From Candidatus Babeliales bacterium (GTDB taxonomy: Bacteria > Babelota > Babeliae > Babelales > JACPOV01), in contig JBFWNW010000002.1 in NCBI GenBank assembly GCA_050250855.1, positions 1 to 64,000 on the forward strand: a stretch of 64,000 bases of DNA, in the 5' to 3' direction. A program made the position numbers. Shown here piece by piece: positions 9,001-12,000 of this stretch (positions are counted from its first letter, which is position 1; every line of letters starts with the position of its first letter).

Positions 9001-12000
9001 AATATAAAAGCCCTACCTAAAAAATATTTTAATACAGAATTTAGTACTCTGATTAATACTATCTTTACAGAACAAGAAAAGAACTCTTTTTAAAAAGATA
9101 TTTCATTTCTTGGTGCCTCTTGTGGCTCAACATAGATATCATCAGTTTTTGGATGGCTTCTATGATTTTCAATACCAAGTTGTATAATACAATCTATAAA
9201 TTCCATAGGACGCAAACCAATTTCAGCTGCTTGGTGAAATATACACGTTGCTGGCGTTAATCCTGGTAGCGTATTAACTTCCAAAATTACCACACGATCT
9301 TTTTGAGTTGGACTTTGTGCGGCTGGCTGATAAAAACAATCTATGCGCACATAACCCTTACAACCAATTACTTTAAATACAGATTCCATTTCACTTTTTA
9401 CTAATGCTAACGCTTCTGGCGCAAGAGGCGCAGGAGTTTGATTTTCACCAGCTCCCGGCAAAAATTTTTCTTCAATAGAAAGAATAGCATTACGGGTAAT
9501 TGCCTGAGAAGGAGGAAGCGCTTTAGGTTTTTCATTCCCTATAACTCCTACCGTTAGCTCCATTCCTTTTACATATTCTTCAATCAAGAGTGCATTATTA
9601 TTTTGTTTAAAAAAAGAATCTAATGCATCTGAACATGATTTTTTATCTTTTACTATCTGTACGCCAACACTACAACCATTATCACGCGGCTTTATAACAC
9701 AAGGAAAAGTAATAGTTTTTTCTATGGTAGCTATAAGAGAATTTTTATTATTAAGCCAAGCATCTTTTGCAACCAACATTCCTTGAGGTACTGCAAAACC
9801 TTGTGCCTCTAAAAATCGATTGGTTTTAAACTTATCAATACACAAAGCACTCGCAAATATACCTGAGCCATTATAAGGAATTCCAAGCATTTCCAATGCA
9901 CCTTGGAGTGTTCCATTTTCGCCTATGCCGCCATGAAGGCCAATAAAAACAAAATCTACTAATGATGGTAAATCCTGCCACAAAACTTTCATAGAAGGCT
10001 GCAACTGACTTTCAATTTCTTGAGTAGAACTTGCCACGAGCAATCGAGCATCAAGTTTATAAAGCTCTCTATCTTTATTTAAAAAAAGAGGAATAGATTC
10101 ATACTGCACGGGAGATATTTTATAGGTAATATTTCTCCCAGACTCTAACGAGATCTCTTTTTCATCAGAAATACCACCCATTATTACGCCAACACGCATT
10201 TTTTTAACTGCTGCAGAGAGCTCACTTTTTTGAGCCATAGAACTCCCCATTCCATAAGCTTGTAATTCAGTTTTTATAATATGATTAATAAATTGAGCAT
10301 GATTCAAGCCAACGTAGGCTGCCTGCTTGAAAAGAAAACTTGATGGCGCTGCACCAGAAAAACTATTGGGATCTATAATAACAACTAAACCTTCTGCTGT
10401 TAAAAATCCATCAATACGCCCTATATTACTAAACTCAAGAGCTTTCATTACTTGTATACACGTATCTTGTATCAACGTTTGAGCTTGAGACGTACAACGA
10501 GCTGGCGTATATTGTAACGATTTTCCCGGCATATATTTTTGTTCATAATCAAAAAAAGCAATATCTTTTGGCGTAACGATTTCAGTAGGAGGCAATGCTA
10601 CAAATTCTCCTGTATTATTATCTGTCATGACAATACAAGAAAATTCCATGCCCGTTATTTTTTCTTCAATAATAATAGATTGAGGCCGGCTGCTTTCCTT
10701 TATTGCTTTTTTTAGTGCTGCCAATAGTTGTTCTTCATGAGTAATAACACTCACACCCAAACTTGAACCTTCACATGAAGGTTTTACAATTAAAGGCCAT
10801 GAAAGTGTATTTATTTTTTTTAGAATAGTTTTTATATCATGTATATCCGCGGCATTAACTTCAACACCATGAGGCACAGAGATATCATGCATAGCTAAAA
10901 ACTTTTTTTGCATGCTTTTATCTATTCCTAATGCACTTGCATATACCTTTGAACCAAAATAAGGAATTTGCAAAATTTCTAACATTCCCTGTATGGTGCC
11001 ATCTTCAGCAAACTGCCCATGCATAGCTATATAAATAAAATCAATGCTATTTTTTAAATCATCCCAAGAAATACGTTGCGCTTGTGTATCAAGACGTTTT
11101 TCAAAATCAGTTATTTTTCCACGATGCAAAAAAGACCATGGCAATATATATAAAATACCTTTTATTGTTTGAAATAAGGGAACTACTTCATAAAGATTGG
11201 TATCAAGATGATCACATATTGTTCTTCCTGAATTAAAAGAGACTTCACATTCTTGTGATTTGCCTCCCATTAATACACCAATTCTAATTTTTTGCATCAA
11301 AATCCTTTGAATAGTTCCACAACATTTTCAAGTAAAAGTATAGACAATAATAGAAATAATTGTATTGTTTTTAAGAGAATAGAAAAACAGTATGTTGACA
11401 GGAATAGGTTTATATGAAAAAAAGTAAAAATAATTTAGTTTGGGTTGATCTTGAAATGACGGGCCTTAATCCTGAAACAGATGTCATTCTAGAAATAGCC
11501 ACTATTATTACTGACGCTGAGTTAAATATTTTGGCCGAAGGTCCTGAATATGCTATTTATCAACCTGCTGAAGTACTTGATTCTATGAATGATTGGTGCA
11601 AAGAACAACATGGCCTTTCTGGTCTTACACAAAAAGTACAAGAATCCCTCATAACATTAGAGCAAGCAGAAGAAGAAACATTGGAACTTATTAAAGAATT
11701 TTGCCAACCAGAAAAAGGAATGCTTGCTGGCAACACCGTATGGATGGACCGTAATTTTTTAAAACAATATATGCCAAAAATTATTCATTATCTGCATTAT
11801 AAGTTAATTGATGTCACATCAATCCAACAGCTAATCAAGCATTGGTATCCTAAAAACCCTCATATCAAGTTTGAAAAAGCAGATACCCACCGCGCATTGG
11901 TTGATATAAAAGAATCTATAGAAGAGCTAAAACATTATCGAAAATATTTTTTTATTTAATTTTTTGCAATTCAAGCAATTGAAATATTTGTTGGGCCAGG

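Follow-up and report, generated by a model that had tools for sequence, protein, structure and literature searches.

D-Ala-D-Ala ligases (Ddl) usually function as dimers. The E. coli enzyme DdlB (PDB 2DLN/1IOV; Y216F mutant, 1IOW) consists of one 306-aa unit, in which an S150A substitution gives depsipeptide activity. Y216F likewise confers depsipeptide activity on DdlB, and F258Y renders L. reuteri vancomycin-sensitive (both in PMC3378904). The Phe-type Ddl enzymes of lactic acid bacteria, among them L. reuteri Ddl (F258) and Leuconostoc LmDdl2 (PDB 1EHI), are single units as well. VanA-type D-Ala-D-Lac ligases share the ATP-grasp D-Ala-D-X ligase fold and are encoded in a vanH-vanA-vanX operon.

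Ddl units also occur in longer chains. In the intracellular Chlamydiaceae, one is joined to MurC, itself an enzyme of peptidoglycan-precursor synthesis (PMC5814848). PMC9954125 describes plant DDL as two putative DDL enzymes fused together, and a moss DDL knock-out as unable to dimerise D-Ala. The moss pentapeptide is given as Ala-Glu-DAP-Ala-Ala, and vancomycin leads to macrochloroplasts (PMC9434261).

The gene described here lies in a 64,000-nt window (the whole stretch of DNA that was analysed) from a Candidatus Babeliales bacterium. It encodes a member of a widespread double-Ddl family that includes plant DDL.

Gene, domain architecture and genome setting

The minus strand carries an open reading frame at 9090-11300, which encodes 735 aa when translation starts at the ATG at 11297; an in-frame TTG (11298-11300) lies one codon 5′ of that ATG. 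Its parts are as follows:

9093..11297, minus strand: double Ddl coding sequence, 735 aa (stop codon 9090-9092)
10260..11297, minus strand: N unit, aa 1-346, a complete Ddl unit with triad E16/S178/Y255 and metal motif D309-P-N311
10203..10259, minus strand: inter-unit linker, aa 347-365, with a predicted helix at 352-361 (pLDDT ~72, lower confidence)
9162..10202, minus strand: C unit, aa 366-712, a complete Ddl unit with E379/C542/F612, E673-V-N675 and T684/C685
9093..9161, minus strand: C-terminal tail, aa 713-735, weakly conserved and of low model confidence
10533..10535, minus strand: Y255 codon (DdlB Y216 position, N unit)
10371..10373, minus strand: D309 codon (DdlB E270 position, N unit)
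9672..9674, minus strand: C542 codon (DdlB S150 position, C unit)
9462..9464, minus strand: F612 codon (DdlB Y216 position, C unit)
9279..9281, minus strand: E673 codon (DdlB E270 position, C unit)

Pfam places Dala_Dala_lig_N and Dala_Dala_lig_C on two stretches each (E 3e-49 and 2e-73), with 166.9 and 246.6 bits against gathering cut-offs of 34.6 and 24 for the N and C families, and the halves are identical to each other at 118 of 357 positions (33%, E 1e-62); the tandem of two complete units proposed in the first-pass annotation is thus borne out. The AlphaFold model covers all 735 aa with a mean pLDDT of 90.8 and a pTM of 0.87. In a Foldseek search it matches Ddl chains at E 1.5e-30 with target-normalised TM scores of 0.80-0.92, and each half finds a match. 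Against the NCBIfam Ddl subfamily model (cut-off 243 bits) the whole protein scores 461 bits, and the single halves 236.7 and 230.3.

Both PF07478 matches in the genome fall inside this gene, which is therefore the sole Ddl there, as had been claimed. It stands alone between a glycosyltransferase-like gene and an oligoribonuclease, and, unlike the VanA-type ligases, it has no vanH-vanA-vanX operon at its locus. The same genome has four Mur_ligase_M matches and three PBP transpeptidase matches. No Mur ligase domain is found in the double Ddl by Pfam, and its score against the MurC-Ddl fusion model NF011171 is 245 bits (cut-off 1015); where the chlamydial enzyme has MurC as the partner of its Ddl unit, this protein has a second Ddl.

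Two unlike units

The halves align end to end with DdlB at 33% and 30% identity, and the fold is shared (target-normalised TM 0.92 to 1iow). In the N unit, E16/S178/Y255 correspond to the DdlB triad E15/S150/Y216, while D309-P-N311 falls on E270-x-N272, with Asp replacing the metal-binding Glu; Phe stands at the L282 position. In the C unit, E379/C542/F612 occupy the triad positions, with Cys at S150 and Phe at Y216, and E673-V-N675 matches E270-x-N272. Thr and Cys (T684/C685) are at S281 and L282, ILSI replaces FYDY, and the omega loop K611-F-L-P-G-A-G-E-N619 is near-invariant. This mapping agrees with the earlier description of a Tyr-type N half with Asp for the Mg-binding Glu and a C half with E-x-N and Phe. 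The Cys at the S150 position (C542) was absent from that description.

Y255, D309, N311, C542, F612, E673, N675 and T684 are each found in 120/120 Dependentiae homologues that are 55-66% identical to the double Ddl; the invariance previously reported for 120 homologues recurs in this set. Equivalents of DdlB K97, K144, E180, E187, K215, R255, D257 and N272 are kept in both halves in 119-120 of the 120. The E270 equivalent is Glu in the C unit and invariably Asp in the N unit, followed directly in Dependentiae by a Pro conserved in at least 90%. Identity in the N half compared with the C half is 62.7% vs 66.4% within Dependentiae, and 32.4% vs 34.2% between classes. The two non-equivalent Ddl units are both under strong constraint, with conservation at about the same level in either half. 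The earlier idea of a covalent heterodimer holds in this sense; its other part, the production of two different termini, is not supported. No description of the N/C asymmetry was found in the literature searched.

Among the single-unit enzymes, the lactic-acid-bacteria Phe-type Ddls share their Phe with the C unit only, a comparison made through the DdlB alignment and fold scores alone. LmDdl2 (1EHI) matches the fold with a target-normalised TM of 0.83 and is among the weaker phmmer Ddl matches (E 1e-21 to 1e-23). L. reuteri Ddl is reported to retain the triad Ser (F258-E17-S186) where the C unit has Cys. The sole lactobacillus plasmid match is a truncated ddl of 225 aa. VanA-type ligases are ~28% identical to the double Ddl. 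Its halves score 142.3 and 141.7 bits on the general D-Ala-D-Lac NCBIfam model (cut-off 550); the VanA model gives 120 bits (cut-off 775) and the D-Ala-D-Ser models 152 bits (cut-off 520).

Distribution and family history

A tandem Ddl is matched in 191 of 201 Dependentiae genomes, extending the near-universal occurrence first noted in 59/61. Among the matches listed, 150/150 are uninterrupted single frames of 729-876 aa. Two-gene forms, with the genes adjacent, and divergent forms also exist, and both keep the N/C signature.

In a wider protein library, 16,957 proteins match at E<=1e-3, and 121 of the best 148 are tandems. The N/C asymmetry recurs in 121 of 121 of these representatives, and the single residues are kept almost throughout: S178 in 120, Y255 and D309 in 119 each, C542 in 115, F612 and E673 in 118 each, and T684 in 116. 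In species genomes, 593 of 600 candidate stretches were confirmed; the 80 retained loci are titled Alphaproteobacteria, Rickettsiales, Chlamydiota, Legionellales, Bdellovibrionota and many Patescibacteria. Record titles for the tandem Ddl as a whole name Proteobacteria, Chlamydiota, Bdellovibrionota and Patescibacteria, and Atlas cluster labels add Bacteroidota. Four of five other genomes checked have no strong Ddl match besides the tandem. Some relatives are fused further, to Mur_ligase_M/C (MurF-like) or to a Mur ligase together with Ala_racemase_N/C, and these fusions carry the N/C signature too.

Plant-type DDLs, Physcomitrium included, carry the same N/C signature in 69/69 cases. Like the bacterial protein, Physcomitrium patens PpDdl and Arabidopsis At-DDL have two Ddl units per chain, with E/S/Y and D-x-N in the N unit and E/C/F, E-x-N and Thr in the C unit. 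They differ in length (890-1060 aa, with an N-terminal extension of ~80-185 residues) and in having Val rather than Cys at position 685, and overall identity is ~30%. The tandem fusion was thus already known and is neither new nor peculiar to Dependentiae. The first-pass annotation had taken a fused two-specificity Ddl to be new; the same tandem and asymmetry occur in many bacteria and in plants, and the fusion is named as such in PMC9954125.

In a quick tree search on 86 hand-picked rows, 38/38 N halves form one clade and 39/39 C halves another (SH-aLRT 99 for each), and the internal orders agree. Plant N and C halves join the same two clades as those of the double Ddl, lying inside a Proteobacteria/CPR-type clade and not with Dependentiae or cyanobacteria. 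The N and C clades, with three single-unit proteins, group apart from DdlB and VanA (SH-aLRT 97). On this grouping, the alternative that two unrelated Ddl lineages had been joined was rejected.

Two other genes of the genome had been proposed as partners of the double Ddl:

C2:145329-145952: VanX/DdpX-like gene
C2:152229-153236: D-lactate-dehydrogenase-like gene; among solved structures its best relatives are D-lactate dehydrogenases

Both exist, ~7 kb apart and, as the first-pass annotation had itself allowed, not next to ddl (135-143 kb away). In Dependentiae the VanX-like gene is present in 108/201 genomes and the dehydrogenase-like gene in 12/61 (E<=1e-30). By eye, the VanX-like protein begins with a hydrophobic, signal-like segment, and it may therefore act outside the cytoplasm. 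The statement that alanine racemase is missing is true of the source assembly (95% complete), where Ala_racemase_N has no match, and does not extend to the group: 139 of 201 Dependentiae genomes have a racemase, one of the same genus included. A further suggestion, that a D-lactate site would serve D-Ala economy where there is no racemase, was rejected on this count.

Possible functions

We consider it probable, at roughly 0.65, that the double Ddl is the housekeeping D-Ala-D-Ala ligase of the organism, a single-chain heterodimeric member of the double-Ddl family. The starting points are its architecture and family membership, its conserved active sites, its position as the only Ddl, and the Mur ligases and PBPs of the same genome. 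D-Ala-D-Ala is the probable physiological product, to judge from the moss literature and from the relatives fused to MurF-like ligase and racemase, and the invariant catalytic residues and equal conservation of the halves suggest that both sites turn over.

The two diverged units would fold together as a fixed pseudo-heterodimer, converting D-Ala and ATP to D-Ala-D-Ala, which would pass to MurF for the peptidoglycan pentapeptide. As a guess, the N unit would be the standard D-Ala-D-Ala site and the C unit a second working site with a loosened omega-loop lock, having neither the Tyr-OH nor the Ser-OH, which might alter its kinetics or relax its choice of acceptor. Duplication and the split into an N type (Ser/Tyr, Asp-x-Asn) and a C type (Cys/Phe, Glu-x-Asn, Thr) would have occurred once, ahead of the divergence of the Dependentiae, Bacteroidota-type, Proteobacteria/CPR-type and plant branches.

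Several observations run counter to this reading. The C-unit Phe and the lost Ser-OH resemble the changes that give DdlB depsipeptide activity; Asp for the bridging metal Glu could reduce or abolish turnover in the N unit; and mass spectrometry of the moss need not reveal a minor depsipeptide pool. Taken singly, the halves also score slightly below the NCBIfam Ddl cut-off (236.7 and 230.3 bits against 243).

The oddities of the two units could have another meaning. One unit might be inactive, binding nucleotide or D-Ala and acting, much as the mate in a fixed dimer would, as a structural or regulatory partner that the other cannot do without. Ddl enzymes are normally dimeric, and each unit is unusual at a key place, the N unit in its Asp and the C unit in its broken E-S-Y triad; the adjacent two-gene forms would also fit, suggesting that an unfused pair is still kept together. 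One argument against this is that all other catalytic and ATP-binding residues are invariant in both units, across classes ~30% identical, and that the halves are equally conserved, whereas a dead site usually drifts. The N-unit Asp, present in 119/121 representatives and accompanied in Dependentiae by the conserved Pro, looks more like a working variant. On balance an inactive unit seems unlikely.

The first-pass annotation had read the C unit as part of a D-Ala-D-Lac programme, with the N unit producing D-Ala-D-Ala, the C unit D-Ala-D-lactate, and the VanX-like and dehydrogenase proteins helping to build glycopeptide-insensitive stems. F612 and C542, which fall on Y216 and S150 of DdlB and are each conserved in 120/120, are consistent with this, as are the presence of the two partner genes 7 kb apart and the effects of Y216F in DdlB and F258Y in L. 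reuteri (PMC3378904). Physcomitrium DDL, however, has the same C-unit signature, and yet the moss pentapeptide ends in Ala-Ala and vancomycin has an effect on the plant (PMC9434261). The partner genes are also far patchier in Dependentiae (108/201 and 12/61) than the tandem (191/201), and the VanX-like protein, from its hydrophobic start, is perhaps not cytoplasmic. Neither half comes near the cut-offs of the Van-type models (~142 bits against 550), and most lineages checked have the tandem as their sole Ddl, while in others it is joined to alanine racemase and a MurF-like ligase. We regard the D-lactate programme as improbable. A broader proposal takes the Cys/Phe C unit, invariant between Dependentiae and land plants, for a site dedicated to a second specificity, whether D-Ala-D-lactate or some other D-Ala-D-X, beside an N unit that makes D-Ala-D-Ala; it is rather doubtful.

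Alternatively, the C unit might join D-Ala to an acceptor other than lactate (D-Ser, Gly or another D-amino acid), or the dipeptide might not be destined for MurF. Its second-substrate pocket does differ from that of DdlB (S281 to Thr, L282 to the smaller Cys or Val, Y210 to Leu), and angiosperms, many of them without a full Mur set, retain DDL, for which a role in D-amino-acid metabolism is suggested in PMC12681378. Against this, the D-Ala-D-Ser models give 152 bits where 520 are required, and in a pairwise alignment VanG has Tyr at the omega-loop position of the C-unit Phe. We regard this alternative as very improbable.

Implications

The double Ddl is no innovation of the Dependentiae, and if it is the housekeeping D-Ala-D-Ala ligase, it would be an ordinary wall-precursor ligase of a large family rather than a device for resistance. 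Many bacteria that are reduced, host-dependent or predatory have a double Ddl as their sole Ddl, and the DDL of plants is one as well; its role in angiosperms is still debated (PMC9954125, PMC12681378). The half-trees place the plant enzyme in a bacterial clade of Proteobacteria/CPR type instead of with cyanobacteria. Should the C unit prove to be a dedicated second-specificity site after all, every ligase of the family, that of plants among them, would make two products, the minor one having so far escaped notice. The strict asymmetry of Tyr/Ser-Asp in one unit against Phe/Cys-Glu in the other poses a testable question, that of the role of each half.

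The tandem ddl gene

Both matches to PF07478 in this assembly (1.22 Mb, 95% complete) fall within one gene, a tandem ddl. The assembly also has four Mur-ligase and three PBP transpeptidase matches, and a wall pathway therefore exists. The ddl gene does not belong to a mur/dcw cluster; neighbouring genes include those for an MGDG-synthase-like glycosyltransferase, an oligoribonuclease, and PriA. Window features referred to here are:

5117-6418, plus strand: sodium:alanine symporter family gene (PF01235, E 5e-83)
7900-9093, plus strand: MGDG-synthase-like glycosyltransferase, 397 aa, a neighbour of ddl
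9090-11300, minus strand: ddl ORF (ORF call; codon positions checked)

The glycosyltransferase gene and ddl are convergent, their 3' ends overlapping by 4 bases.

Translated from the ATG at 11297, the ORF gives a 735-aa protein (P0001) with two Pfam matches each to Dala_Dala_lig_N and Dala_Dala_lig_C; the whole chain scores 448-461 bits against the general Ddl models of NCBIfam. Residues 1-362 and 363-735 (the N and C units) are identical at 118 of 357 positions (E 1e-62), and solved Ddl enzymes align with each half over its full length. An AlphaFold model, with an alignment of 120 full-length homologues as input, is confident overall (mean pLDDT 90.8, pTM 0.87); its halves each match Ddl chains, with target-normalised TM of at most 0.92.

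Both halves were aligned to DdlB from the E. coli K-12 record. The N unit retains the DdlB E15-S150-Y216 triad as E16, S178, and Y255, with D309-P-N311 at E270-x-N272 and F321 at L282. The C unit retains E673-V-N675 at E270-x-N272, with C542 at S150, F612 at Y216, T684 at S281, C685 at L282, and ILSI in place of FYDY. Other ATP, Mg, and substrate residues of DdlB (H63, K97, K144, E180, E187, K215, R255, D257, N272, G276) are present in both units. Each mapped active-site position is conserved in 112-120 of 120 full-length homologues (55-66% identical). The tandem Ddl described in the first-pass annotation thus stands in all details checked, to which the Cys at the S150 position can be added.

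Distribution in Dependentiae

P0001 has matches in 191 of 201 genomes of the phylum (173 of the 177 of high quality); among the matches listed (150 of 191), all are single open frames, of 729-876 aa. In the phylum scan, no Ddl match, alanine racemase, or VanX-like gene was found in any of the four genomes of one family (f11: G043, G095, G177, G188). This is consistent with wall-less members such as Babela massiliensis, reported to be without murein genes (PMC4378268). A few others have variant forms:

G198:C6:128130-130276: separate adjacent N-type and C-type genes (L022/L017)
G126:C5:131146-133510: separate adjacent N-type and C-type genes (L018/L024)
G077:C11:8629-10983, minus strand: diverged tandem Ddl of one family, 826 aa (L021)

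Both two-gene pairs keep the N and C signatures, suggesting that the pair works unfused too. The G077 protein also keeps both, at about 30% identity to the window protein; in trees of either half it clusters with a Proteobacteria/CPR/plant class, which suggests replacement via transfer.

The family beyond Dependentiae

With the C half as query, 16,957 proteins were returned at E<=1e-3 from 1.84 billion representatives. From the top 148 newly returned proteins (P0241-P0388), 27 under 690 aa were set aside; all the remaining 121 are tandem, in length classes of about 705-754, about 760-850, and at least 850 aa. The asymmetry is kept in every class: among the 121, the N unit has S178 in 120, Y255 in 119, and D309 in 119, and the C unit C542 in 115, F612 in 118, E673 in 118, and T684 in 116. 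As leads only, Atlas look-ups label the long class as commonest in Bacteroidota and the middle class in Pseudomonadota, with Streptophyta and Myxococcota clusters close by.

A scan of species genomes confirmed at least 593 stretches among 600 candidates. Record titles of 80 kept loci include Alphaproteobacteria, Rickettsiales, Parachlamydiaceae/Chlamydiota, Coxiella/Legionellales, Bdellovibrionota, many Patescibacteria groups, and a few Clostridia MAGs. The tandem is the sole strong Ddl match in four of five such genomes tested, the exception being a Peribacteria genome with an additional single Ddl of 356 aa. Natural fusions join the tandem to Mur_ligase_M/C (MurF-like; about 1260-1307 aa; P0333, P0431), to a Mur ligase plus alanine racemase (about 1603-1612 aa; P0437, P0440, P0443), to a class I/II aminotransferase (P0429, P0430), or to an N-terminal HigA-like HTH domain (P0394).

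A length-restricted search, which also revealed the fusions above, returned plant DDLs by name, from Physcomitrium, Selaginella, Marchantia, Klebsormidium, Mesostigma, and many angiosperms; all 69 (P0442-P0510) carry the identical signature. At-DDL and its Physcomitrella homologue are each described as two putative DDL enzymes fused in one gene (PMC9954125). No account of the N/C asymmetry or of bacterial tandem forms was found in the literature searched, whose supplements may contain more; the tandem goes unmentioned in the consulted parts of the TM6 genome papers and of a review on wall synthesis in intracellular bacteria.

A tree (86 rows; IQ-TREE quick search, LG+G4, SH-aLRT support only) was built from 38 hand-picked tandem proteins, split into their halves, and 10 single units. 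It places 38 of 38 N halves in one clade (99) and 39 of 39 C halves in a second (99), at the base of which stand single C-type proteins. Branching inside the two clades follows one order, with a Bacteroidota-type clade, a Dependentiae clade, and a third (100) that unites plants and the odd Dependentiae family with the Proteobacteria/CPR type. N and C halves, with three single units, are split from DdlB and VanA (97). On this topology, duplication and asymmetry are ancient and have a single origin. In both half-trees plant DDL (P0442-P0510 vs P0298-P0388) nests in a bacterial class with record titles of Alphaproteobacteria, Chlamydiota, or Patescibacteria, apart from the Bacteroidota-type class; in PMC9434261 the FCB group had been named closest.

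Possible functions

The best-supported reading is a housekeeping D-Ala-D-Ala ligase in single-chain heterodimeric form. Its main other rival is that one half is a pseudo-enzyme. Both units are probably catalytic: no catalytic residue varies across lineages that share only about 30% identity, conservation is equal in the two halves, and the unusual N-unit Asp is itself invariant.

The first-pass annotation had proposed a two-specificity enzyme making D-Ala-D-Ala and D-Ala-D-Lac. The C-unit residue changes behind this are real, and PMC3378904 sets out the Y216F rule along with the E15-S150-Y216 triad and an F258Y switch in L. reuteri. Several observations oppose a D-Lac programme. Moss, whose protein has the same C unit, is unable to dimerise D-Ala when Ddl is knocked out (PMC9954125); it has the pentapeptide Ala-Glu-DAP-Ala-Ala, and vancomycin gives it macrochloroplasts (PMC9434261). 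The tandem is fused to racemase and MurF in some proteins, and its HMM scores are distant from Van-type ligases. The proposed partner genes are patchily distributed and do not travel with ddl: a VanX/DdpX-like gene is found in only 108 of 201 genomes, and a homologue of the D-2-hydroxyacid dehydrogenase in 12 of 61 (E<=1e-30). D-Ala-D-Lac synthesis might nonetheless occur as a minor or conditional activity.

The VanX-like gene is located at:

G000:C2:145329-145952, plus strand (this assembly; locus L004:1435-2055): VanX/DdpX-like dipeptidase

Its product scores 151 bits, below the NF007557 cut-off of 176. The N-terminus of this product is hydrophobic and signal-like, a feature that would locate it outside the cytoplasm, in contrast to VanX. 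The gene lies 7 kb from the dehydrogenase gene, whose product is closest, among solved proteins, to D-lactate dehydrogenases and exceeds the cut-off of no NCBIfam model.

A missing alanine racemase had also been considered as a trait explaining the enzyme. None was found in this 95%-complete assembly, but the gene is common elsewhere in the phylum (139 of 201 genomes, including seven of eight in the same family and one of the same genus, at G170:C23:6379-7038), so its absence here is an assembly gap or recent loss rather than an explanation of the enzyme. The sodium:alanine symporter gene, 2.7 kb from ddl, is a possible alanine uptake route.

The point of real interest is the function of the N/C asymmetry, which is a matter of the whole family rather than of this window.
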